Assembly (NCBI GenBank): GCA_041489925.1
Contig: JBGPSD010000005.1
Coordinates: 1,581 to 65,580, forward strand
Direction of reading: 5' to 3'
Origin: Candidatus Nanoarchaeia archaeon
Lineage (GTDB): Archaea; Nanobdellota; Nanobdellia; Woesearchaeales; ARS49
DNA length: 64,000 nucleotides
Position 1 is the stretch's first letter. Every line of letters begins with the position of its first letter. The position numbers and the translations under genes are program-made. Under the pieces are notes generated by a model, which was not told the DNA's origin, did no database searches, and saw only the letters and a list, made by a program, of their open reading frames with translations. This document shows, piece after piece, positions 4,200-63,178 of the stretch.

Positions 4200-4272
4200 G
4201 AGCCCGTAGTTTAGCGGTCATAACGCCTCGTTGACGTCGAGGAGGTCGCCAGTTCGAATCTGGCCGGGCTCA
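4200..4272 (+). tRNA. tRNA-Val (anticodon GAC)
   Basis: Hand-folded cloverleaf: acceptor GAGCCCG/CGGGCUC, anticodon stem CCUCG/CGAGG with loop UUGACGU, T arm GCCAG-UUCGAAU-CUGGC, discriminator A. 73 nt, no encoded CCA. Confidence 0.9.
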
Positions 4273-4339
4273 TGAGCATCAGCGAATGAGCACGGACAGG
4301 CTCGTCAATCGCAATTGACCGCTGTCTGGCCGGGCTCAT
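4259..4339 (+). repeat. structured insertion E1 with duplicated tRNA-Val 3' end
   Basis: 15-nt TCTGGCCGGGCTCAT occurs at 4259-4273 and 4325-4339. The 51 nt between are GAGCATCAGCGA + ATGAGCACGGACAG (antisense of the target, 12/14) + GCTC + GTCAAT-cgca-ATTGAC + CGCTG. Confidence 0.8.
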
Positions 4340-4408
4340 CAGGACTTTCTGAGGAATAAACGACTACAAATGGGGTGGCTCCGCCACAGAGACCAGCCAT
4401 AGACCAAG

Positions 4409-6763
4409 TTATATGAAATTAGCTGCGCTGCCTGGTTCTTGTGCTTCTTTGGTTTCGTCCAATACGTTTGATGAGCTGGCGATGCGCTCCAGTGCCTGCT
4501 TGTGCTGGGGGTGCTGAAGCCTTTCAAGCGCAACTTTCTCAATCTGCCTGACACGCTCCCTTGTCACCTTCATTATTTCCCCGATTTCCTCGAGAGTCCT
4601 GCGCTGGACAAACCTTTCCCGAATTACTTGCAGCTGTTTTGGCTTGAGAATTTGCTCAAGATATCCCCAGAGCTCCTGGTTGTTCAGCGCCTCGCCAGCG
4701 CTTTCCAGCCTGGGGTCAAGCCGCCCAAGAAAATCGCCGATTACAGAGTCATCGTCCTCTGAAATTGCGTTGTCAATGGATGAAAACCTTTTTGCCCAGC
4801 CTCTGAGCTTGCACATCTGCCAGGGCGTCATGCCCATTCTTTCCGCAATTTCATTTATTGACGGCTCCTGGTAGTTGGTCTGGATAAATTTATCAACTTC
4901 CTGGAGATACTTTCCTAGTAGCGCCCTTATGTGAATAGGCCTTCGCAACCCAAGCCCCTGCACTTCGTCAATATATCTGGTGACGCTTTGCTTTATCCAC
5001 CAGCTTGCGTATGTTGTCAGTTTTCCGAGTTCAGGGTCCCACTTGTCAACTGCAGTCATGGCGCCCAGGTTTGCGTGGCTTATCAGGTCAATCCAGCGGT
5101 CGGTGAAGCTGCCGTGCTTTCCCCTTGTCGCGTATTTCTTTGCCCAGAACGCGCTTAGCTTTGCAATCTGCAGGACAAGGGTGTCGCGCGATTCGCGGTA
5201 AATTGCGTAGCTCTTGATTGCCTCCCTGCGGCGGTCACGCGAACCAATATGCGGTTTGTCAGCGACGTATCTTGAGACAATAGGAATAAGGGTTCGCGGC
5301 CGGAACTTATTCATCCTGTAAATCTGCACAACCTCGTCCTCAAGCCGCTCGTACTCCTTCAGTAAACTCTCCCTGCTTTTGCCTGTTTTCTCTTTCAGCG
5401 CGTTCTCAAGATTCACAGCCCTTTGAGCGCGCAGTTCCAGCCTGGCTGTGACGCTTTTCCAGGCGCCCATCTTCGCGCTTGCCTTATACGCGTCGCACTC
5501 AAAAATGCTTGTTGACTGGCGCAAATCCCCTGACTCAATAAGCGAGAGAATCTCCTTTGCGACCGCAGCTGCGGCGTGGGGGTTCCTGAGCGTGAGATAC
5601 ATGAATTTTTCCCTGTGCTCATTCATCGTGTTGCAGATTTCCTTCTGCTTTTCCGCGCTCATTACCCTGGCATTTGCGACTTTCTTGAAATAATACGGGA
5701 TTGCATCCTCCACCCTGTTCTTTGGGGGGTCGAGGTTGATTCCCTTTTTGATAATATCAAATACGTGGTCCACATCTATTTCAGAAACCTTCACCCCTAC
5801 CTGCTCAAGCTGGTCCCTTACCTTTTCGATTTTCTCAAAGTCAGAATTGCCAACAACGCCGAGAACGGCTGTGTACGAAACAACCCCTGCAGCAACCCAC
5901 TTGCTCAGCAATCCGTGCGGGATTGATTTGGCAAGCTCCCTTTCAACAGCCCTCTTGACAATGTTGCCCTCTTTTGCAAACCTTTGCTCGTCAATGAGTT
6001 TCTTCAGGTCTGCAAATTTGTAAAAGACGCGGTTGTTGCGCGTTATTGTCGCAACCTGGTGATATTCTGCCGCGTGCTTTATCCTGTGATAATCAAGATA
6101 AGGTTTTGTAGCCCTCAATGCCTTCCTTATCGGCAGGTATTCCTCGCCAGGCTCTCTCTGTTCCTCGATAAAAGCGAGGTTTCGGTAGCGCTGGCTTACA
6201 AGCCCTGAGCGCCTGTTCTTTGGAAGCAGGGCTGTTTCCTTGAGGTCTGTTGATATTGCGGTGTAAACATCCTTCAACAGGCTTATTGGAATCCCGCCCT
6301 TGACCCTGAAATATTCAGGCATTGCAATGCAATTAATCCGGAGGAATGGCAGCGATGCAACCTGGCCATTGTTTTCAGGATATGACTTGAAGATTTTTTC
6401 CCTTGCCTGCTCAACATACGCCTGAAAGTCTGCGATAAGGACTGATTTTGATGAGCCAAGGCTGTTTCCATACTTGCTTTTGAAAAACTCCTGGACAGGC
6501 GCCGTATCCGTGATGTCAAACGCGTTAGCCAGCTCCTCAAGGCTCAACCGCTGAAAAAGCCCAACATCATCGACGTGAATCATGTCCCTGAAAGTCTGGC
6601 TTTCCACGCCAAGTGTCCTGTTCAGGTTCCTGTGCCTTGAGAATCCCTCGTAAATGTCAACAGCGTCAACGCAGGGGAAAACCTGCGGCACTTCCATCGC
6701 GCAAAGGTATTCCTTGTCATAATCCGCTGCGGTAACAGCACCGTAGAACTTACCTTTGGGCAT
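4409..6763 (-). CDS. sigma-70 family protein with a long N-terminal extension
   Basis: The C-terminal ~300 aa match bacterial RpoD motif by motif. Region 2: LISHANLGAMTAVDKWDPELGKLTTYASWWIKQSVTRYI. Region 3: SINEIAERMGMTPWQM. Region 4.2: RTLEEIGEIMKVTRERVRQIEKVALERLQHP. Region 1.2-like: EDAIPYYFKKV. Confidence 0.85.
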   Translation of the reverse strand: MPKGKFYGAVTAADYDKEYLCAMEVPQVFPCVDAVDIYEGFSRHRNLNRTLGVESQTFRDMIHVDDVGLFQRLSLEELANAFDITDTAPVQEFFKSKYGNSLGSSKSVLIADFQAYVEQAREKIFKSYPENNGQVASLPFLRINCIAMPEYFRVKGGIPISLLKDVYTAISTDLKETALLPKNRRSGLVSQRYRNLAFIEEQREPGEEYLPIRKALRATKPYLDYHRIKHAAEYHQVATITRNNRVFYKFADLKKLIDEQRFAKEGNIVKRAVERELAKSIPHGLLSKWVAAGVVSYTAVLGVVGNSDFEKIEKVRDQLEQVGVKVSEIDVDHVFDIIKKGINLDPPKNRVEDAIPYYFKKVANARVMSAEKQKEICNTMNEHREKFMYLTLRNPHAAAAVAKEILSLIESGDLRQSTSIFECDAYKASAKMGAWKSVTARLELRAQRAVNLENALKEKTGKSRESLLKEYERLEDEVVQIYRMNKFRPRTLIPIVSRYVADKPHIGSRDRRREAIKSYAIYRESRDTLVLQIAKLSAFWAKKYATRGKHGSFTDRWIDLISHANLGAMTAVDKWDPELGKLTTYASWWIKQSVTRYIDEVQGLGLRRPIHIRALLGKYLQEVDKFIQTNYQEPSINEIAERMGMTPWQMCKLRGWAKRFSSIDNAISEDDDSVIGDFLGRLDPRLESAGEALNNQELWGYLEQILKPKQLQVIRERFVQRRTLEEIGEIMKVTRERVRQIEKVALERLQHPQHKQALERIASSSNVLDETKEAQEPGSAANFI

Positions 6764-7682
6764 TACCAGTCACCATGCCGAGTGCGGCTTCAACATTTTC
6801 CAGAAGATACCCTGCAGTTTTCACGCCGCCCTGACTGCTCGTGACCACATTGCCAAGAGCCTTCTTGAACTTCTCATCCTGCAGGTAGGTGCGCATTTGC
6901 TCATATGACATTTTGCCCATCACCCTCACATCTTCGATAGTGAGGACTTTTCCGCTGACACTTGCGAGCCTTGGATGGATTGTGCTGTCCTTTTCCTGCC
7001 TCAAAAGCTCAACGAGTGCGTATGCCATACTGCCAGGATTTGCGACTTGCTGGCGTCTGCCTGTCTTTATGCTGTGTTTTGCAATGACATCCTTGTATTT
7101 TGCCCTGTATGACTGAACCCTTTCATTGTCAGGGACAAAGTTATAAACCTCAAACACAGCATTGCGGATAATCCTCGCAATGGTCATTTTCTTTTCAGAG
7201 GCGGCAGGAGTGCTCTCAACCCTTTGTTCAAGCCCTGCTGGCTTTTCAGCTCGTTCAATTCTCGGTGCAGGAGGTGAGTAATCTCTTGCAGGTTTTGGCT
7301 TCGCAATAGGCACTGGCGTTACTGCAGGCGCTGCTTCATAATGCATTTTTGGCTTTGCAACCGGCGCTGGTGTTACTGCAAGAACTGGCGTGTGATACTG
7401 CGTTTCAGGCTCTGGCTTTTTTACAGCGGGCTTTGCAGTGTAATGCATTTTTGGCTTGAAAACATAATGCCTTGCAGTTTTGCCTGCATACAGCGCAAGA
7501 GCCTTCCTGATGAAATCATCATCATTCAAAGGCGATGCAAGAATGGCAGCTGCAAGCAACTGCTTTGCAACATTCCTTCTCAGCCTTTTATCCTTGCTGT
7601 TAGCTATGCTGACAAGCCCCATCTCAAGAATACGCTCAAGGGAAATTTCAACCCGCCTTTCAAGTTTCTGCAAACCAGTCAT
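6750..7682 (-). CDS. hypothetical protein, co-operonic with the sigma-like gene
   Basis: Track ORF 6750..7916 trimmed to Met79 (MTGLQKLERR...), because the upstream part runs through the divergent promoter and the start of the 7810 gene. Its stop overlaps the sigma gene start by 14 nt. Internal repeat KPKMHY-x-A-x-PAV occurs twice. Confidence 0.5.
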   Translation of the reverse strand: MTGLQKLERRVEISLERILEMGLVSIANSKDKRLRRNVAKQLLAAAILASPLNDDDFIRKALALYAGKTARHYVFKPKMHYTAKPAVKKPEPETQYHTPVLAVTPAPVAKPKMHYEAAPAVTPVPIAKPKPARDYSPPAPRIERAEKPAGLEQRVESTPAASEKKMTIARIIRNAVFEVYNFVPDNERVQSYRAKYKDVIAKHSIKTGRRQQVANPGSMAYALVELLRQEKDSTIHPRLASVSGKVLTIEDVRVMGKMSYEQMRTYLQDEKFKKALGNVVTSSQGGVKTAGYLLENVEAALGMVTGNAQR

Positions 7683-7809
7683 CCACCCACCGTAAACAAG
7701 GTTAAATTCGCTCTTTATAAAGTTTTTACTTCTAGGGAATATGCTTCGAATATCGCAGCCCGCATTCTTAAAGCAACATTTATAAACCCTGTCGCGAACT
7801 AAGACGACG

Positions 7810-8898
7810 ATGGCAACGCAGAGGTTTCCAAAAGACGGGGTGTTCAAGTACTTCTTCATAGGATTGTTTGTGTTGGTTGCAGCCCTCACATTCTGGGTTG
7901 CAAGGCCGTTCATCAATGCGCTGCTGGCAAGCGCGGTTGTAGCTTATGTCTTTTACCCGCTTTACGGCTGGCTGAACAAACACATCAAGTACAAGAACGT
8001 GTGCGCAGCGCTGGTTTCAGTACTCATACTGTTATTGTTCATCGGACCCTTGTTCCTTGTCGTCGAATCAGCAGCACCTGACGCAACATACACATATGTC
8101 AGGGCAAAGCAGAAAATAATGAGCGGCGAATTCATAGACATTGCGTGCCCTGCACAAAACGAGAACTTCCTCTGCAGCTTCCAAAGCAGAATCAAGGTCT
8201 ATCTCCAGCAGCCTGACGTGAAATATTATGTCAGCGACACAATAAGCAAGGCAACAGGGTTCATAATGCAGAAAATCGCTGACATTGTTTTTGCCCTGCC
8301 ATTAATTTTTATCAACCTCTTTGTCACTTTTTTCGCAGTCTTTTACCTGCTTAGGGATGGTAAAAGCCTTGTTGAGCACGTAAAAGACCTGCTGCCAATA
8401 CATCCAAGGCACAGGGACCACATTTTCAAAAGGCTTCAGGACACTGCAAGGGCGGTCATATACGGCACTCTTGTGATTGCAGTCATACAGGGCATTGTCG
8501 GCGGGCTTGGATTTTGGCTCTTCGGAGTTTCATCGCCGCTGTTATGGGGCATGGCAATGGCATTATGCGCGCTTATCCCATTCATAGGAACAACAATAAT
8601 CTGGATTCCTGCAGGAGTTGCGATGATTCTCGCAGGCTCTGCAGAAGGAAATCCAGCATCTGTCTGGAAAGGAATAGGGCTGCTGGTTTACGGATTCTTC
8701 ATAATTTCAGGCATTGACAATGTGCTCAAGCCGACACTTATCGGCGACAGGGCAGGAGTCCACCCTGTGCTTATCCTGGTTGGAGTCATGGGCGGGCTTG
8801 CGGCATTCGGTGTCGCAGGATTTGTAATCGGACCGATAATCATGGCGGTCTTCAAGGTCTTCCTTGACATTTACAGGCAGGAATACGAAGAAGCATAA
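7810..8898 (+). CDS. AI-2E family transporter (PerM/UPF0118)
   Basis: Multi-TM protein with family-typical LLRDGKSL and IPFIGTTIIWIPA segments. ATTTATAAA lies ~23 nt upstream of the ATG. Confidence 0.82.
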   Translation: MATQRFPKDGVFKYFFIGLFVLVAALTFWVARPFINALLASAVVAYVFYPLYGWLNKHIKYKNVCAALVSVLILLLFIGPLFLVVESAAPDATYTYVRAKQKIMSGEFIDIACPAQNENFLCSFQSRIKVYLQQPDVKYYVSDTISKATGFIMQKIADIVFALPLIFINLFVTFFAVFYLLRDGKSLVEHVKDLLPIHPRHRDHIFKRLQDTARAVIYGTLVIAVIQGIVGGLGFWLFGVSSPLLWGMAMALCALIPFIGTTIIWIPAGVAMILAGSAEGNPASVWKGIGLLVYGFFIISGIDNVLKPTLIGDRAGVHPVLILVGVMGGLAAFGVAGFVIGPIIMAVFKVFLDIYRQEYEEA

Positions 8899-8915
8899 AA
8901 AAAGAGGAGCAGGGG

Positions 8916-9008
8916 ATGAAGCTTAAAGTCAAAGACAATGAAAAAGCTGCGCTTTTTCAAGCCCTTAACTCTCAACCGAGTGATAACAAATGAAACTGAG
9001 AGTTAAGG
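8916..9008 (+). promoter_or_regulatory. 25-codon upstream ORF plus a 12-bp hairpin enclosing the deoA start codon
   Basis: uORF MKLKVKDNEKAALFQALNSQPSDNK (8916-8993) has a GAGGAG-like upstream motif and ends in ATGA overlap with the deoA ATG (8990). CCTTAACTCTCA (8963-8974) is the exact reverse complement of TGAGAGTTAAGG (8997-9008). Confidence 0.5.
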
Positions 9009-10483
9009 ATATGGACATAGCTACAGGCGACGTCCAGGTCGTAATTCTTAATGAGAAAGACGCAGATATGCTTGACCTGCACCACAATGACCGCATCTTC
9101 GTGAGGAAAGACAGGCGCCACACAATCGCAGTCCTTGACATCGGGGAAAGCGAAAAGGCAGTGCCGGCTGGCTCAATAGGGCTTTTTGAGGAAGTTCTTG
9201 ACGCACTGTACGCAAAAGACGGAGACACTGTGTCAATCGAGCTCGCGAGAAAGCCAAAGAGCGTCGGCTACATAAGGAAAAAGCTCGACGGAAAAGAGCT
9301 GACCTACAGCGAAATCTATGAGGTCATAAAGGACATTGGCAAAAACCAGCTCACCGACATAGAGCTGGCGAGCTATGTGACTGCAAATTACATAACAGGA
9401 ATGAGCGACAATGAAATCATAAACCTCACAAAGGCAATGATTTTCACAGGCACCAAGCTGAAAATTGCGAAAAAGCCTGTTGTTGACATCCACTGCATTG
9501 GCGGAGTGCCTGGCAACAGGACAACAATGATTGTCGTCCCAATCCTAATCGCTGCAGGGCTGACAGTGCCAAAGACAAGCTCAAGGGCAATAACATCTCC
9601 GGCAGGCACTGCAGACACAATGGAAGTCCTGTGCCCTGTTTCTTTGCCGATTTCAAAGCTTTACCAGATTCTCAACAGTGTCGGCGGCTTCATAATCTGG
9701 GGCGGCTCTGTCAACCTTGCGCCTGCAGATGACCGCATTATCAAAGTCGAGCACCCGCTAAGCATTGACGCAGAAGGCCAGATGCTTGCATCGATTATGG
9801 CGAAAAAGGCAAGCGTCAGCGCAACGCACCTGCTGATGGACATTCCTGTCGGCAAGGGCGCAAAAGTTGAGGACAGGAAGCAGGCAGTCCACCTTCAGGG
9901 CCACTTTGAGCGCCTTGGAAAGGAGCTCGGGATTCAGGTCTGCACGATTATAACGCAGGGCTCAGAGCCGATAGGAAACGGCATAGGGCCTGTCCTTGAG
10001 GCAAAAGACTGCCTTTGGGTCTTGAAGAATGATTCAAGGGCGCCTCAGGATTTGAGGAGAAAAAGCCTTGAAATGGCAGCAGTCGCGCTTGAATTTGCAG
10101 GAGCAGCAAAAAAAGGGCAGGGAATGCAGATGGCGACAGAAATCCTGAACAGCGGCAAGGCATACAAGGTGTTTGTTGACATGATTCGCGCGCAGGGCGG
10201 CAAAGATGTTGACCCTGAAAGCCTTAAGCCCTGCCCATTGCAGTACACCTATTCCGCGCCAAAGGCAGGACTGGTGAAATCCCTTGACAATATCTCAATC
10301 GCGCGCATAGCAAGGATGGCAGGGGCGCCAAGGGACCCTGACTCAGGAATACTTCTCCACCGCCACTGCGGAGATTCTGTGAAAAAAGGGGAGCCGATAA
10401 TGACAATTTACGCGCACACAAAAGAAAAGCTCGGCTATGCAATAGATATCCTGAAAGACCTTGACGGCATTATTGTTCAGTAA
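8990..10483 (+). CDS. deoA: AMP phosphorylase (archaeal thymidine phosphorylase family)
   Basis: 497 aa. Has the archaeal-type N-terminal domain (MKLRVKDMDIATGDVQVVILNEKDA...) followed by the glycosyl transferase family 3 core (HCIGGVPGNRTT, TSSRAITSPAGTADT). Confidence 0.88.
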   Translation: MKLRVKDMDIATGDVQVVILNEKDADMLDLHHNDRIFVRKDRRHTIAVLDIGESEKAVPAGSIGLFEEVLDALYAKDGDTVSIELARKPKSVGYIRKKLDGKELTYSEIYEVIKDIGKNQLTDIELASYVTANYITGMSDNEIINLTKAMIFTGTKLKIAKKPVVDIHCIGGVPGNRTTMIVVPILIAAGLTVPKTSSRAITSPAGTADTMEVLCPVSLPISKLYQILNSVGGFIIWGGSVNLAPADDRIIKVEHPLSIDAEGQMLASIMAKKASVSATHLLMDIPVGKGAKVEDRKQAVHLQGHFERLGKELGIQVCTIITQGSEPIGNGIGPVLEAKDCLWVLKNDSRAPQDLRRKSLEMAAVALEFAGAAKKGQGMQMATEILNSGKAYKVFVDMIRAQGGKDVDPESLKPCPLQYTYSAPKAGLVKSLDNISIARIARMAGAPRDPDSGILLHRHCGDSVKKGEPIMTIYAHTKEKLGYAIDILKDLDGIIVQ

Positions 10484-11082
10484 CCTTCCTTGTGCTCTTT
10501 GGTGTGCTCGTTGTGTATCGCGACCATTGCCCTGTGCGAGGCATAAAGCCTTCCTTTCATCACCCTGAGAACGTTTTGCCCGCCACGTAATCCCCTTGCA
10601 GTAATCCTTGCCTCCTTTGCAAGCAGTTCAGCCTCTTTTGCAATCCTTGTTTCCATTGCGAGCTTTTCCGCTTCCTGTATAAGCCTTGCCTCCCTGAGCA
10701 GGACTGCCTCGTGCGCGACTTTCTGGCCGCTCTCTGCAACCTGCTCACCGACTGCGAAAATCGCAGCCACCTGCTCATAAGCCCTGAATGCAAGATAGAA
10801 CGGGAACACTGCAATCATGTCAAGCCAGTACAGCTTGAAAAACTTCCTGACATTTTTTGTCTTGAACCACTTGAAAACAAGGTCAACAACAAAGAAGAAA
10901 ACAATTATGTAGTCAAATATGGTCATCCACGGCCCGTGTTCGCTGATTGGATACAGAGTCCAGAACGGGTTTTCAACAATGAGCACGAGGGCAAGGATGA
11001 TAACCAGAAAAGGGATTATGTGGTCAGTAAAGTGCTCAAACTCATGAGTAAACCTCTGCCACAAACTCCTCTTTTTTTCCAT
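10477..11082 (-). CDS. membrane protein with a voltage-sensor-like (ion_trans S1-S3-like) N-terminus and coiled-coil tail
   Basis: FDYIIVFFFVVDLVFKWFKTKNVRKFFKLYWLDMIAVFPFYL resembles the S2-S3 segments of ion-transport proteins. No pore or selectivity filter. The ATG directly abuts the duplicated tRNA-Ser 3' end. Confidence 0.45.
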   Translation of the reverse strand: MEKKRSLWQRFTHEFEHFTDHIIPFLVIILALVLIVENPFWTLYPISEHGPWMTIFDYIIVFFFVVDLVFKWFKTKNVRKFFKLYWLDMIAVFPFYLAFRAYEQVAAIFAVGEQVAESGQKVAHEAVLLREARLIQEAEKLAMETRIAKEAELLAKEARITARGLRGGQNVLRVMKGRLYASHRAMVAIHNEHTKEHKEGY

Positions 11083-11243
11083 ACGCCGACGGCAGGACAG
11101 CGGTCAACTTCGCTGATGCTCGTTGACCAGCCATGTCCGTGCCCTGATGAGCACGGCCAGACAGCGGTCAACTTGCGAGTTGACGAGCCCTGCCTGAACC
11201 TCACATATGTTACCTACTATATATTTATACGCCGACGGCAGGA
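11081..11243 (-). repeat. composite structured insertion E4 with duplicated tRNA-Ser 3' end
   Basis: Minus-strand 17-nt TCCTGCCGTCGGCGTAT occurs at 11243-11227 and 11097-11081. The 129 nt between hold an AT-rich stretch, a near copy of the E1 3' half including a tRNA-Val 3' end (TCTGGCCGTGCTCATCAGG), and the hairpin GTCAAC-GAGCATCAGCGA-aGTTGAC followed by CGCTG. Confidence 0.75.
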
Positions 11244-11312
11244 TTTGAACCTACAATTCCTTTCGGAACCCGCTCTCAAGGCGGGCGCACTACCGGGTTA
11301 TGCGACGTCGGC
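11230..11312 (-). tRNA. tRNA-Ser (anticodon UGA)
   Basis: Hand fold: acceptor GCCGACG/CGUCGGC, anticodon stem CCCGC/GCGGG with loop CUUGAGA, long variable arm UUCCGAAAGGAAUU, T arm GUAGG-UUCAAAU-CCUGC, discriminator G. 83 nt. Confidence 0.85.
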
Positions 11313-11479: not shown

Positions 11480-11534
11480 GTTACTCATAATCAAATACAT
11501 ACTTTAAAAAACATGCGGTTCCAAGCGGTGTTTT

Positions 11535-12020: not shown

Positions 12021-12032
12021 AAAAGTATATAA

Positions 12033-12362: not shown

Positions 12363-12364
12363 TT

Positions 12365-12526: not shown

Positions 12527-12700
12527 GCTCCTCTAAAAGAACCGCAACGCTTAAAAGTCTTTCTATGCGAAGTATATTCTAGAGAGAATAAATCTTTATA
12601 AACCGCCTGCTTGGAGAAGTATAAATACATTGTGGTGGTAGTTCCTCTACATTACGAATTATAGTTCGGATGTGAGGGGATAAAGCTAAAAGTTGGGGGA

Positions 12701-56228: not shown

Positions 56229-56686
56229 GCGGCATAAAAGCATATTTCCCAACCTTTAAGTTTCGCCAGGTATTTGCTTGCTGTATGAATGAAGCAGTAG
56301 CTGGCAGGTTAAGAGAATTAGGAGTTAAGGAACCGGATTTAGAAGAAACTATGGTAATTTTATCAGCCCCAACGCCTGATGAAGCATCGCAAAAAATGGG
56401 CGAGTTTCATTATGGCGCAGGATATTCCCAAGTAATGCTTCCAATGTTCAGAGTATTATACCAAAGGGGGGATATAAGACAATCAGTTCTCAGGGACCTT
56501 GAATCTACGCACGTTCCCCCTAATACAATAGATGATTATTTTATGAATATGGGAAATACGCCTCTCTTAGTATTCCATTGCAGACATGAAAATGACATTG
56601 CTATGGATGCAAGGAATGCGTTTGTTACCAGGGCGGACGAATTAATGCTAACTTATCTAAAAAAAGCTGCAGGTATCGTTAATTCT
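56229..56686. mobile_element. putative single-gene cassette inserted at the DUF357 gene 3' end
   Basis: Bounded by the perfect 29-nt direct repeat. Contains one ORF (56285..56698), convergent to the host gene. No recombinase gene is present. Confidence 0.45.
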
Positions 56687-56698
56687 AATCCACAGTAA
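56285..56698 (+). CDS. hypothetical protein (cassette ORF)
   Basis: Track ORF 56153..56698 trimmed to MNEAVAGRLRELG... Its last codons read through the repeat copy. Confidence 0.4.
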   Translation: MNEAVAGRLRELGVKEPDLEETMVILSAPTPDEASQKMGEFHYGAGYSQVMLPMFRVLYQRGDIRQSVLRDLESTHVPPNTIDDYFMNMGNTPLLVFHCRHENDIAMDARNAFVTRADELMLTYLKKAAGIVNSNPQ

Positions 56699-57038
56699 AC
56701 AGCGTGTCATCGTGGTCTACGTCAAAGAAGCCAAGCCTTGCACCGGCATCCAGCCACCCGTGGGCATAATTCAAAGCTGCAAAGGCAGTCACAATATCGC
56801 CTTTCTGCTCAAAGTGCTTTGCGTCAGAAAAATACCTTTGAGCCATGTCAAAAACCACATGCGCAAGACAGTACATGCAGGAACAATTAGCGCGTGGTTT
56901 TTGAGCATGCTCAGAAATGCGCGGCATTTCTGACATATCTAAGAAGTCTTTTGCCTTGGCTATTTTGACTTTCTCAAGTGCCCTTGAAGTCACGTCAAAG
57001 TACTTTTTCAGCTTTTCAGGAGTTATTTCCGAGCTCAT
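56685..57038 (-). CDS. DUF357-like protein, first gene downstream of rpoK
   Basis: YFSDAKHFEQKGDIVTAFAALNYAHGWLDAGARLG resembles the archaeal DUF357 family (from memory). 4-nt overlap with rpoK. Confidence 0.55.
   Translation of the reverse strand: MSSEITPEKLKKYFDVTSRALEKVKIAKAKDFLDMSEMPRISEHAQKPRANCSCMYCLAHVVFDMAQRYFSDAKHFEQKGDIVTAFAALNYAHGWLDAGARLGFFDVDHDDTLFTVD
56687..56715. repeat. 29-nt perfect direct repeat, proximal copy
   Basis: Identical to 56200-56228. Encodes the C-terminal HDDTLFTVD of the DUF357-like protein. Confidence 0.9.
56896..56935 (-). repeat. double-hairpin element, copy F3 (degenerate), in frame inside the DUF357-like gene
   Basis: Minus strand: TGTCAGAAAT-gccgcg-CATTTCTGAGCATGCTCAAAAACC. 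Encodes ...DMSEMPRISEHAQKPR..., compare F2 VSETRKVSEHAQEPR. Confidence 0.6.
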
Positions 57039-57298
57039 GCCATCTTTGCCTTTTCAGCCGCCTTTTGGGCGCGCTTGGCAGGCAATGGGCGTTTCACAGT
57101 AATCGGCAAAACGTCCTTCTCAAGCTCGAGCTTGGCAATTTCAATCGGGTTGTAGCCTATCTTTTCCAGGTCCTTCTCAGAAAGAGTGACAAGGAAAGGG
57201 GCGCCCATTGAAATCTGCAAAGCCCGTGAGCCAATCATCCTGGCGATTTCGTACTTTGTGTGCTTTTCGCGTTCTTCTGCTTTTGCCATTGGAATCAC
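57035..57298 (-). CDS. rpoK: DNA-directed RNA polymerase subunit K (Rpb6 homolog)
   Basis: TKYEIARMIGSRALQISMGAP...PIEIAKLELEKDVLPITV. Confidence 0.85.
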   Translation of the reverse strand: MIPMAKAEEREKHTKYEIARMIGSRALQISMGAPFLVTLSEKDLEKIGYNPIEIAKLELEKDVLPITVKRPLPAKRAQKAAEKAKMA

Positions 57299-58068
57299 CT
57301 TTGAAGCTTCTTGCGCAGCTCTTTTGCCTTGGCTTGCGCAATGTCTACCATTGCGATAATCTCGTCTGCAGTCAGGGGCATTTCTCCGCCTTTCTGCATT
57401 GCACAGACCATGTCCTTGTCGTTGAATGCGACAGTCAGCCTTGCGTCAAGCACTTCCTCTTCGGCAGGCAATGGGTCAACAAGGATATTGCCGCCAACCC
57501 TGATGAGAGTGACTTCGACAGGGCACTGCAGCAATGGAAGCTTTTTCTCAGTCTTCTTGGTGTAGTCAACCTCGCCTTCATCGCTAATTTCAGGGAATAC
57601 CGTGTCCCTGAGAGCAGCGACAGCAGCCAAAGCAGCCGCGTCAAGCAGGTTTCCTTCGTCATTGATTGTGCAAACGTCAATCATGACGCTCCAGACCTTC
57701 TCTTTCTCCTTGATGCAGAGCTTTGTAAGGTCAATTGCCTTTGTTTCCCTGATTGCGCGGTCAATGACACGCGCAAGCTCAGTTGCCTGGTCTCCTGGCG
57801 GTCCTGTCTCAAACAGCGGACTGCTCATAGGTGTCAGCTCTGCGTTAATCATCAGGTTGCCTTGGGCAGGAGTGTCAGGGTAAGGCGTGCCAACGCCGAG
57901 CTTTACGCCCGCGATGACTTCTGTCTCGCCTATCTTCACCCTGGCGCTTCCTTCTGCCATGTGGGACACGCCGTATTCTATTGATATCGGCCTGTATTCG
58001 TCCATCTTTCTTCCGTCATACCTGAGCGATTTTGCCAGGTATTTGAGAATGTGTTCTTTCAGTATCAT
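57295..58068 (-). CDS. rrp42: exosome complex component Rrp42
   Basis: RNase PH-like fold (LRYDGRKMDEYRPISIEYG...EGSARVKIGETEVIAGV). Position after rrp41. Confidence 0.9.
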   Translation of the reverse strand: MILKEHILKYLAKSLRYDGRKMDEYRPISIEYGVSHMAEGSARVKIGETEVIAGVKLGVGTPYPDTPAQGNLMINAELTPMSSPLFETGPPGDQATELARVIDRAIRETKAIDLTKLCIKEKEKVWSVMIDVCTINDEGNLLDAAALAAVAALRDTVFPEISDEGEVDYTKKTEKKLPLLQCPVEVTLIRVGGNILVDPLPAEEEVLDARLTVAFNDKDMVCAMQKGGEMPLTADEIIAMVDIAQAKAKELRKKLQR

Positions 58069-58805
58069 GCTCTCACCTTCTTGTGCTCTTCAGGAGCGAA
58101 CTTTGCCTTCAAAGCCTCCTGCTGGACCTTGTAAATCTCCATTGCCTTCTGCTTGGCGATTTCCAAGACTTTTTTCAGGTCTTCTTTTGGAACCTCTCCG
58201 TCAAGCTGAAGCAGTGAGAACTTGTCCATTGAAGGGATATAGGCAATCGGAATGTCCGAGATGCCGACCTCGCAGTCCTCATAGCCGTCAATGTCAGCCA
58301 TTATCTTTCCTTCATAGTGCCCCATTGAGAGCGCGACAACAAGGTCTTTCATTATAAGACCTGCGTCAGCAAGAGCCATTGCAGCTGCGCATATTGCAGC
58401 GCACCTTGTCCCTGCGTCTGTCTCAGGCAGCTCGATAAAGACATCGATAACTGCGTTCGGGTATTCCTTAAGGTCAAGCACAGGAAGCAATGACTTTGCA
58501 ATAAGCATGCTGATTTCCTGGCTTCTCCTTCCGCCTCCGGGTCTAACTCTTTCGCCGTGCCCTGAGAACGGCATCATGTTGTAGCGGCACCTGAGTATTC
58601 CTGTTTCAGGGTCCTGCTTGAACTTCGGGTGAAGCTCTCGCGGGCCGTAAACAGCCGCATACGCGACAGTGTGCCCCATCCTGAACATCGCGCTTCCATC
58701 AGCGCGCGGAATTATGCCGACCTTTCCTGCCATCGGCCTAAGCTCCTCCCAGTCCCTTCCGTCGTGGCGCTTGGGATATGCCTGTTTTACTGCTTTAGCT
58801 GCCAT
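58065..58805 (-). CDS. rrp41: exosome complex exonuclease Rrp41
   Basis: RHDGRDWEELRPM...ADGSAMFRMGHTVAYAAVYGPRE. Start set to the ATG immediately after the rrp4 stop (the track ORF extends to 58835). Confidence 0.9.
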   Translation of the reverse strand: MAAKAVKQAYPKRHDGRDWEELRPMAGKVGIIPRADGSAMFRMGHTVAYAAVYGPRELHPKFKQDPETGILRCRYNMMPFSGHGERVRPGGGRRSQEISMLIAKSLLPVLDLKEYPNAVIDVFIELPETDAGTRCAAICAAAMALADAGLIMKDLVVALSMGHYEGKIMADIDGYEDCEVGISDIPIAYIPSMDKFSLLQLDGEVPKEDLKKVLEIAKQKAMEIYKVQQEALKAKFAPEEHKKVRA

Positions 58806-58806
58806 T

Positions 58807-59670
58807 TTAATCGTGCCCCCTTGGTGCGCCGCCAAAACGCCTTGGCGGACCGTGCCTTGCGTGCGGTCTTGGACCGTCGAAATCCCTGCGCTCGCGGAAT
58901 TCCCTTCTTTCCTCCTGCGGAGGCTCGTGGAATTCCTCTGAAGTGCTGGCTGTCACAACAGGTATTTCAACAGGCTTTCCTGTCGCCTGCTCGAGGTATG
59001 CCTTCATCCGTTCAGTAAGGCCTGGCAAATGCGCCTCTTCCTCGACTTTCTTGATTGCATTGACTGCCTGCATTTCCTGCTCAGGCGAAGGTCCCTGGAC
59101 CCATATCCAGCCGTTCTGCCCGACAGAGATGTCGCAGCCTGTTGCGTTCTTTATCATCATGACCATGCTGCCTTCCTTTCCGATGACGCGCGGAACCTTG
59201 TGGGGGTTTACCTCAACAAGCCTTCCGTCCTTGAGCTTCTTCACCCCTGGCGCCTTCATCGTGACGTCAATGAGCTTCTGGCTCGTGACATTGATGACCT
59301 TGCAGAGGATATACTCCCCAATGCCATAGTACTGCGTCAGGTCAGATGACCTTGGGATGAACTCTGCTGTTGCATCCTTCAATCCCAGAACTGCGCTGTA
59401 AGGGCTTCGCGTCTCAATGCGCCACCCTGTCATCAGCACGTCGATAACCTTTCCGATTATCTTGTCATTCAGCTTTGGGACATACGCGCCTGTGAGCGGT
59501 ATCAGCTTGATGACCTTTCCTTCGATGCTTATCATTCCGAACCTGCCCGCGTGGATTTTTGCGCCCTCGCGATACAGGCCTTTGCTTGGCAGGAATCCCA
59601 TTCCATCTGCCACTATCTCACCAGGAACAACGATATCGCGTTCCTTGACATTCAGTGTTTCATCACTCAT
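58807..59670 (-). CDS. rrp4: exosome RNA-binding subunit Rrp4
   Basis: N-terminal domain plus S1 (GKVIDVLMTGWRIE) plus KH (VIGKEGSMVMMIKNATGC). Arg-rich tail. Confidence 0.9.
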   Translation of the reverse strand: MSDETLNVKERDIVVPGEIVADGMGFLPSKGLYREGAKIHAGRFGMISIEGKVIKLIPLTGAYVPKLNDKIIGKVIDVLMTGWRIETRSPYSAVLGLKDATAEFIPRSSDLTQYYGIGEYILCKVINVTSQKLIDVTMKAPGVKKLKDGRLVEVNPHKVPRVIGKEGSMVMMIKNATGCDISVGQNGWIWVQGPSPEQEMQAVNAIKKVEEEAHLPGLTERMKAYLEQATGKPVEIPVVTASTSEEFHEPPQEERREFRERRDFDGPRPHARHGPPRRFGGAPRGHD

Positions 59671-59693
59671 ATTATTTCACTCCGTGTTTGTTT

Positions 59694-60392
59694 TTATCCG
59701 TTTACCCTGACTACTTTTGAAATAAGCTCTCCGTGCGTTGCCGCATTGAGCTTGTCATACAGCTCCTGCTCCATCCCACCGGCAATCTCAAGGACTCCCT
59801 TCCAGGAGCCGTCGCTCTGCCACGACTCTGACAGGATTTTGCCGAAGTGCTTTATGAGGCTGTATGCCTTTGACGCATACTGCGCCGGAATTATGAGCTC
59901 GATTTCCTTCATCTCGAACTTGATGGGCAGGATGGGCCTCAATGCCTTCAATACGTCCTGCACCTGCTGTTCGACAGGCTTGAACTCGTCAATGCGCACC
60001 TTTGCCTCAACCAGCGCTGCTTCAATCCTCTGCGCAGGGTGCGGCGTGTGCGTCCTTGGGTCAACGCCATTGCACCTTATGAACTCGATAATCTGGAGCC
60101 GTTTCTGGTCCATGAGCTTCTGGCGGTACTCTGAGGTGACTTGTATGTTTCCGTCAACAACTATCTTTTTCGCGACTTCCAATGCGTCAGTTGTGCCGAA
60201 GATTGCCTGCATTCTTTGCTCGGATGCAAGCATTCCTTTCTTTGCGTCGCTGAAAATCTTCTGGACTTTCAGCGCGTCCCTTATGTCAGCCTTGCCGTGC
60301 CTTGCGGCAATCGCCTTTTCCGGGTCGATTACGATTTCAAACACGTCCGAGCCCTTTTTGAGCCGGGCGGTATTCATGTGTTCTTCTGTCAT
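59694..60392 (-). CDS. sdo1: SBDS-family ribosome maturation protein
   Basis: FYSH-domain N-terminus (ARLKKGSDVFEIVIDPEKA...IFSDAKKG). Conserved position between psmA and rrp4. Confidence 0.9.
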   Translation of the reverse strand: MTEEHMNTARLKKGSDVFEIVIDPEKAIAARHGKADIRDALKVQKIFSDAKKGMLASEQRMQAIFGTTDALEVAKKIVVDGNIQVTSEYRQKLMDQKRLQIIEFIRCNGVDPRTHTPHPAQRIEAALVEAKVRIDEFKPVEQQVQDVLKALRPILPIKFEMKEIELIIPAQYASKAYSLIKHFGKILSESWQSDGSWKGVLEIAGGMEQELYDKLNAATHGELISKVVRVNG

Positions 60393-61147
60393 TTCCTCTT
60401 AACTTCCTTCAGCACCCGGTCAATGTTTGCCCGCTGCATTTCCTTCAGGACCTTTTCGTCGGTCTTGATGTATGCCGCGGCAATACGCTCGACGGAGAAA
60501 TTCTTGTCAAGCACCTGGCTCAAAGCGCGGAGCGCAAGCCTGAGGCCATCCTCGATGGTCATGTTATCCTTGTACTCGCGTGCAAGGATTTCCTCAATTT
60601 CCGGCTCTCCTTCGCCTATCACAGTTGCCCTGAACTGGAAGAATATTCCTGTCGGGTCTGTTTCGTAAACCTTTGGCCCATCGGTGTCAATGCCAGCCAC
60701 GATGAGGCTGACTCCAAACGGCCTTAAGCCGCCTGACTGCGTGCACACCTGCTTTAATGCGCAGATGTCCTTGACAACGCTGATTGTGTCAATTGGCGTA
60801 TCATAAGTCACGGCGTGCTGCTGCGCCTTGATTTGCGCCCTTTCAATAAGCACTCTTGCGTCAGAGATTATTCCTGACGCTGTTGCCGCGATGTGGTCAT
60901 CAATCTTGAAGATTTTCTCAACAGATTCAGGGATGACCATCTTGTCAACTATCCTCTTGTCAGCCACAAGAATAACACCGTCAGAACAAACCATTCCTAT
61001 CGCAGTGCTTCCCTGCCTGACTGTCTTCTTTGCGTATTCAACCTGGAGCAGTCTTCCGTCCGGGCTGAACATCGTGATTGCGCGGTCATAGCCCATCAAC
61101 TGGTGGGGCATTGGCTGCGCGCTTGCTTCTTCTTCGCCTTTTTTCAT
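60389..61147 (-). CDS. psmA: proteasome subunit alpha
   Basis: YDRAITMFSPDGRLLQVEYA alpha-subunit signature. Confidence 0.95.
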   Translation of the reverse strand: MKKGEEEASAQPMPHQLMGYDRAITMFSPDGRLLQVEYAKKTVRQGSTAIGMVCSDGVILVADKRIVDKMVIPESVEKIFKIDDHIAATASGIISDARVLIERAQIKAQQHAVTYDTPIDTISVVKDICALKQVCTQSGGLRPFGVSLIVAGIDTDGPKVYETDPTGIFFQFRATVIGEGEPEIEEILAREYKDNMTIEDGLRLALRALSQVLDKNFSVERIAAAYIKTDEKVLKEMQRANIDRVLKEVKRK

Positions 61148-61154
61148 TTCTTCA

Positions 61155-61508
61155 TCACCCTGCCACGTAGTTTGTTGCTTTTTTCAAAGAGCCTGAAACG
61201 CCGACGCTTCGGACTGTTGCCGGCATCGCATCAATCTCTTGGATTAAAGTTAAGCTTGCTTTCAATGAATCAACCTGCCTGTTGTTTACTTTTACTATTC
61301 CCCTCTGCGTTTGAGGGTTATATTTCTCCGGAAGGAGCATTATACCTGCCTGCGCAGTGCCCTTTGTGCCTGTAAATGAGAGCATTCCCTGCCAGATTGC
61401 CTTGGATACGCTTGAATAGTCCTTAATTCTGCTTTTAGATAGCACTTCGAACGCTAAATAGCGCTTTTTCTCCCTCAAACTCGGCAGAATTGCCTTAATC
61501 TTTGCCAT
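61155..61508 (-). CDS. rnp2: RNase P protein component 2 (Pop5)
   Basis: LPSLREKKRYLAFEV... Pop5 pattern. Position upstream of psmA. Confidence 0.8.
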   Translation of the reverse strand: MAKIKAILPSLREKKRYLAFEVLSKSRIKDYSSVSKAIWQGMLSFTGTKGTAQAGIMLLPEKYNPQTQRGIVKVNNRQVDSLKASLTLIQEIDAMPATVRSVGVSGSLKKATNYVAG

Positions 61509-61697
61509 TTGGCCTTTTCACCTTTATAACACCGTTCATTGGTGAGAAAAACACAAATACAGTCTTCGCGTCCCTTTTCTCACTTACAATTTTGAGAGGT
61601 GGTGGGTATTTATTAAGATTGCGGTCTTATTAGTTACTGATGATTAACCCCTCTAAAGTAGTAACATTAATATAGGAGTAGTGCTTTTACCACTGTT

Positions 61698-62126
61698 ATG
61701 AGCGCAGACACAATTTACAGGATTGTTCTTGTAGACAATGACGCACTGCCAAGGAGAATTGCGCGTGGAATTTGCGAGTTAATCGCGCAAGAGATTTCAC
61801 AAAGGGTGGAGATTCAAGAGTTTGACGATGGTGTTCCAGCGTGGAATTATTTGAGCCAGCTTCAGGAGCCCCCTCACCTGCTTCTCACTGATATGAATAT
61901 GAATGTGATGTATGGCGATGAGCTGATTGAGAAAGTGCAGGCAAAGTTTCCGCGCGACAGGTTTCCTTCCTTGAACATAATCCTTGCTTCTGACACGTCT
62001 GCTGAAATGGCTGAATCAATGGCAGGGATGGCTGAATCGAACGGCTATGCGTTCCTTAGAAAGCCGTATGAAATTTCCGCGCTCAAGGAACACGTGAAGA
62101 AGTGCGCGCCAAAGCCTGCGGCTTAA
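61698..62126 (+). CDS. stand-alone response-regulator receiver domain
   Basis: VLVDND, phospho-acceptor context LLLTDMNM, ILASDTS, FLRKPY. Confidence 0.75.
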   Translation: MSADTIYRIVLVDNDALPRRIARGICELIAQEISQRVEIQEFDDGVPAWNYLSQLQEPPHLLLTDMNMNVMYGDELIEKVQAKFPRDRFPSLNIILASDTSAEMAESMAGMAESNGYAFLRKPYEISALKEHVKKCAPKPAA

Positions 62127-62128
62127 GT

Positions 62129-62136
62129 TTTATAAA
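62129..62136 (+). promoter_or_regulatory. TATA box for the 62159 gene
   Basis: TTTATAAA lies 22 nt upstream of the ATG at 62159. Confidence 0.55.
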
Positions 62137-62158
62137 CAGCCCGCTGTTTTTTGTTCTT

Positions 62159-62569
62159 ATGACTGGAGAACCTGATATTCTGGTATGGGTGGCAGACCCA
62201 GGCACACTTGTTGACAAGGTCGTGCAGACTGCTTTGGAAAGCCAAAAGATGCGCGGAGTAAACGTCGTTCAGTATCCCCATCATGCAGAATTGATTGACA
62301 AGCTAAACACGCTGCCACCTAATGAAAAACCTGATGCTGTCCTCGTAAGCAGTTTTGCATCGCCTGTTGTTGATGCAATCATGAGCAATTGGAAACACAC
62401 AGGAATTGCAGTTTCTTATTATTCCTGGGAAAACATGAAACCGCAGGCAGAAAAGGAGCTTGTGCATTATATTCACAAGGACGACCATGCAGGCCTTGCA
62501 GCATTCCTTACAGGCGTGCGCAAAATGAAGGAGTACAGCCAAAGGGCAGACAAGGCACTTCTGCAATGA
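62159..62569 (+). CDS. receiver-like protein lacking an obvious phospho-acceptor Asp
   Basis: Trimmed to MTGEPDILVWVADPG... using promoter spacing. Receiver-like alternation, but LVSSFASP sits at the acceptor position. Confidence 0.45.
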   Translation: MTGEPDILVWVADPGTLVDKVVQTALESQKMRGVNVVQYPHHAELIDKLNTLPPNEKPDAVLVSSFASPVVDAIMSNWKHTGIAVSYYSWENMKPQAEKELVHYIHKDDHAGLAAFLTGVRKMKEYSQRADKALLQ

Positions 62570-62571
62570 GT

Positions 62572-62579
62572 TTTATAAA
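62572..62579 (+). promoter_or_regulatory. TATA box for the 62602 gene
   Basis: TTTATAAA lies 22 nt upstream of the ATG at 62602. Confidence 0.55.
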
Positions 62580-62601
62580 TGGGCAATAATTTCCTGCTTC
62601 T

Positions 62602-62961
62602 ATGAGTGGAGAAAAATCAGTCTGGATTGTTGACTCTGGGCCTATTGAGGATAAAATGCGCCTGGAGCTCGAGCAGAAAGTGCCTGGTGTTGCTGTTACT
62701 GCGTTCCAAAGTGTCTGCGACGCTGTTGATGCATTGCGAAGCGGACAGAAGCCGCAGGTTATCCTCGGAAATGACCGCTCTTGGGAACTGATGCTTGAAC
62801 TCCTTTACCAGCCAAGCAAGTATCACGGAATAATTCCTGCTTATGTTTCAGAACAGGACCTTTCACAGCTTGCGGCCACGCATCATGTCGGGTATGTGAA
62901 AATAGGCAAGGAAGGCAGCTTTGACGGCCTTGCTGAATTTGTGCAGAAGTGGGCGCAGTGA
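62602..62961 (+). CDS. receiver-like protein (degenerate)
   Basis: VWIVDSGP...VILGNDRSW... has similar length and pattern to the two upstream genes. Confidence 0.45.
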   Translation: MSGEKSVWIVDSGPIEDKMRLELEQKVPGVAVTAFQSVCDAVDALRSGQKPQVILGNDRSWELMLELLYQPSKYHGIIPAYVSEQDLSQLAATHHVGYVKIGKEGSFDGLAEFVQKWAQ

Positions 62962-63010
62962 GTTGTTTTCCAAAACCTTTTTAACCACATTATTGATTTT
63001 CAAGGGTATT

Positions 63011-63100
63011 GGGCTCTTAGCTCAGTCTGGTAGAGCATTCGGCTCTTACGCTTATTGCGCAGAAACCGAATGGCCAAGGGTTCAAATCCCTTAGAGCCCG
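63011..63100 (+). tRNA. tRNA-Lys (anticodon CUU) with a 16-nt intron
   Basis: Hand fold: acceptor GGGCUCU/AGAGCCC, D arm GCUC-AGUCUGGUA-GAGC, anticodon stem UUCGG/CCGAA with loop CUCUUA[intron]A, T arm AAGGG-UUCAAAU-CCCUU, discriminator G. Confidence 0.85.
63049..63064 (+). other. putative tRNA intron at canonical position 37/38
   Basis: CGCUUAUUGCGCAGAA interrupts the anticodon loop and contains an internal CGC/GCG helix. Exact boundaries not verified by a BHB fold. Confidence 0.6.
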
Positions 63101-63178
63101 TAATGAGTAACAACGAATGGAGGAATCTAAGGCTGGACGACCGCTGTCGGCCGCTGCCTTAGAGCCCGTAATGAGTAA
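63089..63178 (+). repeat. structured insertion E5 with duplicated tRNA-Lys 3' end plus downstream gene start
   Basis: 22-nt CCTTAGAGCCCGTAATGAGTAA occurs at 63089-63110 and 63157-63178. The 46-nt insert CAACGAATGGAGGAATCTAAGGCTGGACGACCGCTGTCGGCCGCTG contains an antisense TCTAAGG and ends in GTCGGCCGCTG like E2/E3. Confidence 0.8.

Follow-up and report, generated by a model that had tools for sequence, protein, structure and literature searches.

Putative two-hairpin mini-elements with duplicated and inverted target copies in a Woesearchaeota-like archaeal lineage

Introduction

The yeast mitochondrial GC clusters (e.g., GC42) and the fungal double-hairpin elements (DHE) are ~40-nt selfish hairpins that encode no enzyme, and the mechanism by which they spread is unresolved (PMC4478555). 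Rickettsia palindromic elements (RPEs) are short palindromic repeats that lie in frame within unrelated protein genes of a reduced, host-dependent genome (PMC10969869). Here we describe a family of short, two-hairpin repeats in a 64-kb stretch of archaeal DNA (positions 1,581 to 65,580, forward strand, of contig JBGPSD010000005.1, assembly GCA_041489925.1, Candidatus Nanoarchaeia archaeon; 64,000 nt, hereafter the window). Its nearest kin are these hairpin-forming selfish repeats, and its new features are an arm complementary to the target and a long target duplication of variable length.

The family resembles GC clusters and DHE in its sporadic presence and absence, in substitutions that concentrate in loops, and in the merging and shuffling of units (PMC4478555). 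GC clusters differ in having fixed 2-3-nt flanking repeats (AG, ACT) and no inverted target copy and in residing in organelle genomes; no sequence similarity to them is claimed. Like the family, RPEs add a conserved peptide to host proteins by in-frame insertion, but they are about 100-150 bp long. [quoted passage not shown] Small inverted triplications also juxtapose local sense, antisense, and sense copies that form hairpins and can be removed by slippage between direct repeats (PMC13334657), but they consist of local DNA alone with ~150 bp per arm, whereas here a foreign module is always present and the junction is sequence-specific. Tyrosine-recombinase integration at tRNA genes and casposon integration likewise target and duplicate the tRNA 3' end. 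Compared with tRNA integration, the present family carries no cargo, its repeats leave out the T-loop and vary in length, and it uses sites in coding sequence as well. Casposons have 14-15-bp duplications and inverted terminal repeats.

To our knowledge, no RPE or MITE has been reported with a target-complementary arm or with a duplication of up to 30 nt, and we know of no described prokaryotic mobile element that both duplicates its target and adds the target in inverted form. A search of the literature for comparable repeats in DPANN archaea or Woesearchaeota found nothing relevant. If it is confirmed, DPANN archaea would have their first described family of small hairpin repeats, and prokaryotes their first mini-element that combines a long, variable target duplication with an inverted target copy.

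Results and Discussion

The gene content of the window is archaeal (ribosomal proteins L31e and S19e, TFIIB, exosome and proteasome subunits, and a family-B DNA polymerase), and the nearest homologs of its genes carry the names Candidatus Woesearchaeota or Nanoarchaeota. Its three tRNA genes are those for Val, Ser, and Lys(CTT), the last with an intron. Together with the window we examined ~200 kb from relatives (contigs here carry L numbers), including L044, whose synteny with the window covers 5181-27078 (92-96% nucleotide identity); L050, 94.7% identical to window 275-9072; L051, ~87% identical to the window; and L046, from a lineage ~81% identical.

A first-pass annotation of the window had assigned seven loci to one architecture, and five of them (E1-E5, Table 1) bear this out; the remaining two, at 11296-11479 and 8916-9008, proved to be truncated tRNA-Ser copies and a leader without the (C)GCTG motif described below. 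The five loci comprise six units (E4 holds two) with a common plan. Along the host gene, whose orientation all five loci share, the target stretch (T) is followed by a loop, an antisense copy of T's beginning (T'), a spacer (ACCA, CTC, or CTG), a conserved hairpin (HP-B), the motif (C)GCTG, and T once more (left and right copies, T_L and T_R). The element is about 40-65 nt in size and has two hairpins. HP-B takes the forms GCCGAC-n3-6-GTCGGC, GTCAA(C/T)-..-TTGAC, and GACGAC-cgct-GTCGGC. The conserved 3' end noticed earlier, a hairpin with (C)GCTG and the repeated target after it, was seen in 6/6 units; a scan for CAGC(G) plus a hairpin recovered E1, E2, E3, and both E4 units, and E5 has the same layout but one stem mismatch.

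Table 1. Coordinates and parts of the repeat units in the window, of three tRNA-end copies in related contigs, and of other loci discussed in the text.
Feature	Coordinates	Strand	Site	Parts and remarks
E1	4259-4339	+	tRNA-Val 3' end	Covariance-model score 42.5 bits; exact 15-nt direct repeat T_L 4259-4273 = T_R 4325-4339; later 12-mer 4274-4285; T' 4286-4300 (antisense to T at 12/15 positions); spacer CTC 4301-4303; HP-B GTCAAT-cgca-ATTGAC 4304-4319; CGCTG 4320-4324
E4	11081-11243	-	tRNA-Ser 3' end	Composite, two units between exact 17-nt direct repeats, 11081-11097 = 11227-11243
E4 unit B	11098-11161			CGCTG; HP-B with 12-mer in loop (11103-11127); tRNA-Val-type T'; CAGG; tRNA-Val 3'-end copy
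E4 unit A	11162-11226			CGCTG; HP-B 11167-11184; tRNA-Ser T'; 30-nt A/T-rich loop
E2	16706-16764	-	In frame, HemK/MTQ2-like methyltransferase, just past NPPY motif	43-nt element 16714-16756 plus 8-nt duplication; repeats TCAGGCAG at 16706-16713 and 16757-16764; HP-B 16715-16732; TGGT 16733-16736; stem and 12-mer 16737-16756
E3	25684-25738	-	In frame, C-terminal tail of ribosomal protein L31e	Encodes ..ARAGASADQPTKSAL..; 41-nt element 25691-25731 flanked by TGCAGGC at 25684-25690 and 25732-25738
E5	63089-63178	+	tRNA-Lys(CTT) 3' end	Covariance-model score 42.9 bits; exact 22-nt direct repeat T_L 63089-63110 = T_R 63157-63178; loop 63111-63125; T' TCTAAGG 63126-63132; CTG; HP-B GACGAC-cgct-GTCGGC 63136-63151 (one mismatch); CGCTG 63152-63156
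L042 copy		antisense	tRNA-Leu 5' end	T 17 nt; T' 10 nt
L038 copy			tRNA-Arg 3' end	T 16 nt; T' 7 nt
L040 copy			tRNA-Thr 3' end	T 14 nt; T' 6 nt
Empty site in window	19905-19925	-		..CCTCTTTTTGtcatcaat..; filled in related contig L052
Truncated pseudo-tRNA-Ser, tandem (not of the family)	11289-11512	-		Units of 74-75 nt, each with 17-nt upstream region
deoA leader (not of the family)	8916-9008	+		25-codon upstream open reading frame (MKLKVKDNEKAALFQALNSQPSDNK); 8-bp hairpin; 12-nt antisense stretch
Second hairpin family	26273-26342	+		Hairpin AAGAACC; GAGCATGCTC; hairpin GGAAACC; GACAC; absent from L044

The junction is constant on one side. The (C)GCTG end always abuts the 5' side of a YCYK site with which T begins (CCTG, TCTG, TCCT, or CCTT; mostly CCTG-like), which in tRNA genes coincides with the first base(s) of the 3' T-stem strand. 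The target stretch to the right of the joint, 5-30 nt, is found on both flanks of the insertion. Within the window T measures 5-22 nt, and in other contigs it reaches about 30 nt, falling overall into classes of 5-8, 10, 14-17, 22, and ~30 nt; the duplicated lengths first reported for the window hold, with exact repeats of 15, 17, and 22 nt and short repeats of 8 nt at E2 and 7 nt at E3. T' ends at a fixed point, opposite base 1 or 2 of T and directly upstream of HP-B, and its reach is variable, from 4 to 15 nt. T', HP-B, and T_R fold as one long hairpin, with pairing of T' to T_L as the alternative. Over 5-10 nt, T' fits the differing local targets (CAATTTGCAG, CCGGGAG, CGGAGG, AATGGG, TTTCAAG, CGAAAAGAG). 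In an alignment of copies, the T':T helix was 87% paired, with changes on both sides in 5/6 pairs, and HP-B was 99% paired; three of its pairs are compensated between subfamilies. The stems had earlier been taken as fully compensatory covariation. They do vary with the target, but because one arm is the target, T':T pairing measures copying rather than selection and does not amount to independent RNA covariation.

In 6/6 tRNA genes the left boundary of T lies 13-16 nt before the tRNA 3' end, at the T-loop/T-stem junction, so that the repeats span the T-stem to the tRNA 3' end as integrase att sites do. Such repeats could be the attL and attR of tRNA-targeting integrative elements that lost their interior. 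We disfavor this origin and consider it very improbable: merely 46-129 nt separate the repeats, with no gene remnants; the T-loop is excluded from the repeat; the module also occurs at coding and intergenic sites with 5-10-nt repeats; and T' would be left unexplained. With cargo lacking and coding-sequence sites in use, we do not regard the loci as att remnants.

The decisive support for the family is comparative, not statistical. By a looser definition of the architecture, the window gave 9 matches against 2.6 +/- 1.5 in 100 dinucleotide shuffles (maximum 8). A relaxed architecture scan returned mostly noise when T was 9 nt or shorter and T' 6 nt or shorter; long or module-bearing matches alone were used. 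A covariance model built from 18 units recovered all known copies at 31-55 bits except the 12-mer-bearing E4 unit B (16.7 bits, E = 0.42), and a scan of the window with it gave nothing else convincing.

Comparison with relatives shows that the loci are true insertions, with empty sites for E1, E2, and E4 in genomes 87-95% identical, and every locus recurs in independent assemblies. E2 is a 51-nt (17-aa) insertion found in none of 11 aligned orthologs, two of which are 94% identical and the lowest 69%; the methyltransferase that carries it reads NPPYLPQE-LPERASASSDQPTSRSA-LPERD, and all 11 orthologs read NPPYLPQELPERD (or LAERD). The 146 nt of E4 are missing from the syntenic L044, which keeps a single ATACGCCGACGGCAGGA, and also from L051 and L046. 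The E1 site is empty in L051, where tRNA-Val ends 11 nt from the neighboring stop codon and tRNA-Ser is bare as well. L044 additionally lacks one tRNA-Ser 5' unit, the 51-nt E2, the 87-nt in-frame segment at 13703-13789, and the 70 nt at 26273-26342, and has its own 106-nt insertion near window 18905. The reverse holds for one site, filled in L052 and empty in the window (Table 1); the L052 copy has T = CCTCTTTTTG and HP-B = GTCGAC/GTCGAC. Over 7785-18134 and 56389-64000, which include E2, E4, and E5, the window is matched at 100% identity by assemblies from the Joint Genome Institute (JGI) and Logan; this argues against mis-assembly, although both apparently derive from the same sample. L055 and L056 reproduce E5.

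Scans with HP-B-based patterns, one of a genome collection and one of metagenomes, located true copies in L010, L012, L029, L031, L032, L033, L035, L036, L038 (two), L039 (three), L040, L041, and L042. At least 14 further copies are thus present in metagenomic contigs of relatives, and six of these lie at tRNA ends. Several display the plan much more clearly than the window copies do. Past its tRNA-Leu, L042 has two more elements, one of which duplicates ~30 nt, and one diverged copy lies just past the window end (L055 365-400). With the 12-mer pattern GAGCATCAGCGA..CGCTG, viral contigs gave 14 matches, none with flanking stems, which we took as random, so that this pattern is too unspecific for a metagenome scan; the HP-B pattern had no matches in viral contigs. 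Matches in high-GC bacteria (Bradyrhizobium and others; L001-L009, L011, L013, L014, L030, L034, L037, and L043) were discarded as coding-sequence coincidences.

Altogether the HP-B-(C)GCTG module was found at at least 20 unrelated loci of the window and related contigs. The empty sites, the many loci and genomes, and the conserved module and junction strongly support one of the origins first proposed, a mobile mini-element that copies its target, and the further copies and empty orthologous sites are what the first-pass annotation had suggested looking for. Template switching, another of its proposals, survives as our preferred source of the T/T'/T layout but not in a purely local form. Local switch mutations with no mobile sequence, i.e., small inverted triplications, would give the sense/antisense/sense layout and the variable lengths, which resemble DUP/INV/DUP events (PMC13334657). 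The DUP/INV/DUP order is indeed seen, but each copy contains the same non-local sequence, common to unrelated loci and other genomes; this shared module refutes local switching as a full explanation, and we give it next to no credence.

We also compared the family with other described classes; the first-pass annotation had not recognized it as any described archaeal MITE, intron, or att-site type. As with MITEs, it is multicopy and has filled and empty orthologous sites. However, its ends are not terminal inverted repeats, one being the loop or GAGC.. and the opposite one ..(C)GCTG, and there is no IS in the window; lacking terminal inverted repeats and a fixed duplication, it is not a classical MITE. 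Palindrome-associated elements of IS200/IS605 (PATEs) and repetitive extragenic palindromic (REP) sequences with their RAYT enzymes do not fit, with a duplication always present here and no Y1/HUH gene in the window or fetched loci. A bulge-helix-bulge intron (two 3-nt bulges, 4-bp helix) was rejected after a manual check in which the motif occurred in no register of the E3 repeat in either orientation, and the tRNAs are complete without excision of the inserted segments. C/D-box, H/ACA, hammerhead, and tRNA-like minihelix candidates were dropped after inspection by eye or a check against Rfam, in which only the three tRNAs reached the gathering threshold and lenient scans gave noise (E >= 0.1, scores far below thresholds). 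The traits of short hairpin-forming selfish repeats (GC clusters, DHE, RPE), namely small size and structure, sporadic occurrence, substitutions that preserve the structure, and tolerance within genes, are all present; this is a functional class, not a homologous family.

The 12-nt loop described as nearly invariant has a history of its own. Three exact copies of GAGCATCAGCGA occur in the window (4274-4285, 11110-11121, and 16743-16754), each closed by a different 6-bp stem, as had been reported. It is, however, no original defining part of the element. The 12-nt gain inside E1 is the sole indel of at least 6 nt between the window and L050 over 8.8 kb (window 275-9072), and E1 of L050 reads ..GGGCTCAT-CA-GAGCACGGACAGG-CTG-HP-B-CGCTG-T. 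In ancestral E1, T' therefore came immediately after T and its 4-nt native flank, and GAGCATCAGCGA was added later at the tip. The 12-13-mer lies at the T:T' hairpin tip in E2 and at the HP-B tip in E4 unit B, and E3-type copies carry a tip GAGC-NNNN-GCGA in which NNNN varies. Judged from these alignments, the 12-mer is a separate, secondary insertion at hairpin tips. In the window, 33 12-mers occur at least three times against ~3 in shuffles, a count that is weak as a lone statistic. The tips with the 12-mer, like the composite E4, resemble the merging of GC clusters.

E4 bears on how units move. Its unit B is nearly a copy of the ancestral E1 unit, including the tRNA-Val 3' end, the 4-nt flank CAGG, and the tRNA-Val-type T'. 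A tRNA-Val target, its flank, and its T' at a tRNA-Ser site show copying from a donor locus, and this carry-over implies that entire units with old target copies can be copied to a new, similar site. For loops outside the module, such as the 30-nt A/T-rich stretch of E4, no template was found in the window.

Some copies are old and conserved. E3 is present in the L31e tail of seven contigs (L044, L010, L052, L053, L054, L032, and L035), and the peptide SADQPTKSAL occurs in 7 of the 120 closest L31e homologs. L052-L054 were obtained by protein and were thus not chosen by a DNA pattern; their element differs from that of the window by 0-1 nt in 48, and in the same pairs the L31e domain shows 71-88% identity at third codon positions. 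L032 and L035, with third codon positions 42-62% identical, were found by an exact 27-nt pattern, which inflates their apparent conservation. Apart from the apical tetraloop, the L31e copies differ only by a single compensatory pair (GC/GC to GU/AC) and a single G.U pair, and their T_R has drifted (CCTGCA, CCTGAA, CCTGCG, CCTGTT, CCCGCG). In L039, two same-frame copies lie within the N-terminal extension of ribosomal protein S13; the peptide added by coding copies is ..A(R/Q)AGASADQPTKSALP.. in L31e, S13, and the methyltransferase. L033 and L055 hold orthologous intergenic copies in which both stems have diverged, with most pairs retained. These comparisons point to maintenance of structure in old copies, by selection, conversion, or re-insertion.

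A selected RNA structure had been offered as a further explanation, and the loop-only and compensatory changes in old copies favor it without speaking against mobility. In its full form, the repeat would be a functional RNA (or DNA) motif under selection, e.g., a protein-binding hairpin pair with a tandem-GA, K-loop-like tip, and its mobility would be incidental. Consistent with this are the L31e nucleotide conservation, well above that of synonymous sites, the retained stems of the diverged L033 and L055 copies, the orientation of the five window copies with their host genes, and the common frame of three or four coding insertions. We nevertheless judge it unlikely. E1, E2, and E4 are missing in close relatives with no replacement visible; the sites are heterogeneous (tRNA trailers, coding, and intergenic); the L042 copy (on the tRNA 5' side) and one L039 copy (3306-3342) are antisense to their neighbors; there is no Rfam match; fold z-scores are modest (-0.2 to -4.6); and part of the apparent conservation, that of L032 and L035, stems from the search pattern.

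The reading that we prefer, and to which we would give an even chance, is that the repeats are non-autonomous two-hairpin mini-elements of one Woesearchaeota-like (DPANN) lineage, spread by copy-choice, i.e., template switching. One fixed and one variable end, a variable duplication, a T' that starts at the joint, and the carry-over of donor flank all favor copy-choice over a staggered transposase cut, and the 5-30 nt range of duplications argues against a fixed staggered cut. Other lineage-specific insertions that are patchworks of nearby sense and antisense copies (e.g., 13703-13789) show that template switching is active in these genomes, and no transposase, integrase, or reverse transcriptase was found in the 64-kb window or in any fetched neighborhood. 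In the enzymatic steps that we infer, copying would be coupled to replication or repair and would need no element-encoded enzyme. A 3' end located at the target would pair with a donor copy through CCTG-type microhomology and copy (C)GCTG and HP-B; the new hairpin would snap back, and the polymerase would copy the target strand over a variable distance, generating T'; synthesis would then rejoin the original template, leaving T duplicated. Later, a unit could be copied along with its former T and T', as in E4, and tips could gain the 12-nt GAGC-NNNN-GCGA cap. The direct repeats would permit precise loss, and fixed copies would keep both hairpins.

Several observations weigh against copy-choice. 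The L31e element is identical at 43-48 of 48 nt between lineages whose third codon positions are 42-73% identical, and this conservation implies that selection, conversion, or re-insertion has acted; the copy-choice model predicts none of the three. The T' of E4 unit B is of the old tRNA-Val type and not of the local tRNA-Ser type, so T' is not rewritten every time. No empty site was found for E5, for which an exact-protein look-up with the proteasome subunit gave the same genome only. A sequence-specific joint and a module conserved across genomes would be more typical of an enzyme-recognized element, and the enzyme may be encoded elsewhere in the genome, beyond the 64 kb and the ~200 kb of relatives.

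These last points lead to a MITE-like reading, in which a dedicated enzyme from another part of the genome, either a hairpin-recognizing one of the HUH/Y1 type or another recombinase, would move the elements in trans, binding HP-B and cutting after (C)GCTG, with T' and the duplication as repair by-products. The conserved (C)GCTG end and YCYK target start, the compensatory changes that keep the HP-B structure across subfamilies, and the multiple copies with presence/absence polymorphism would all fit. On the other side, terminal inverted repeats are lacking, the duplication is 5-30 nt and not fixed, IS200/IS605 and REP-type elements leave no duplication, and neither the window nor the fetched loci hold a candidate gene. 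We regard such an enzyme as possible, though on the unlikely side.

A more speculative idea is that T' is a guide, which pairs with DNA (or RNA) beside the (C)GCTG joint, directs copying, and is rewritten at each jump, making the family a programmable targeting system borne on a hairpin, i.e., an enzyme-assisted, 'self-retargeting' mobile element. E4 unit B, in which the old tRNA-Val-type T' adjoins the tRNA-Ser target and is still partly pairable with it (CCTG..CCGT), hints at this, but we think it improbable. If T' does guide insertion, the family would represent a new targeting principle.

The filled and empty sites at 87-95% identity provide dated natural examples of the spread of hairpin repeats without an obvious transposase, a question shared with GC clusters, DHE, and RPEs. 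In-frame copies offer a route by which new peptide segments arise in disordered extensions of ribosomal proteins and enzymes. The annotation of tRNA genes is also affected, in that duplicated 3' ends can mimic att sites.

Other Repeats and Neighboring Features

Two internally deleted pseudo-tRNA-Ser units, carrying 17 promoter-proximal nt each, lie upstream of the functional tRNA-Ser (Table 1), and what had appeared as an antisense segment is the pseudo-tRNA's own 3' acceptor strand. One unit is present in L044 and none in L051 or L046.

The upstream open reading frame in the deoA leader begins like deoA and overlaps the deoA start codon, and the 12-nt stretch is antisense to deoA codons 3-6. 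The parts are ordered differently from those of the family, with no (C)GCTG module. The leader is nearly unchanged in L050 and in L046 (81/82 nt, in a lineage otherwise ~81% identical) and absent in L044 and L051, two closer relatives than L046. It may be a conserved regulatory leader. Upstream of the DEAD-box helicase start, at 2917-3022 (+), a mini-open reading frame (ATGGCAAACAAAAGGTAG) is accompanied by a GAAACC..GGTTTC hairpin, and GCAAACAAAA occurs again at 3013 in the gene; the arrangement is the same in L050 and may be another old gene-start insertion.

A second hairpin family has a palindrome, GAGCA(T/C)GCTC, between two 7-bp hairpins. Sister copies of the one in Table 1 lie at 1285-1345 and 56858-56935 (inside a DUF357 gene), and one is found only in L044, opposite window ~18905.

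At codon 3 of a metallophosphatase gene, 87 nt are inserted in frame (13703-13789, +). As a patchwork of 'templated' pieces, this insertion repeats the downstream LEALTA(A/V)L codons in sense and carries the junction as a short antisense copy. Other differences from L044 are a radical-SAM gene at 24643-25494 (-), between IleRS and L31e, which L044 lacks; an additional 220-aa open reading frame in L044 near window 21450; and window 14741-15876, which could not be aligned with L044.

The metagenome-assembled genome contig CAYGVI010000002.1 (L010), deposited as 'uncultured Methanosarcinales archaeon', is syntenic with and ~93-95% identical to this Woesearchaeota-like genome, and its label is, on this similarity, probably wrong. 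A 784-aa protein encoded at 4409-6763 (-) has bacterial sigma-70 regions 2, 3, and 4 at its C-terminus, yet the genome is archaeal; an exact-protein look-up gave no match, and its position is kept, at 87-97% identity, in the related contigs L044, L050, and L051. Finally, an open reading frame at 50912-52171 (-), with no Pfam match, holds three tandem ~165-nt copies (51299-51796) that are 63-88% identical.

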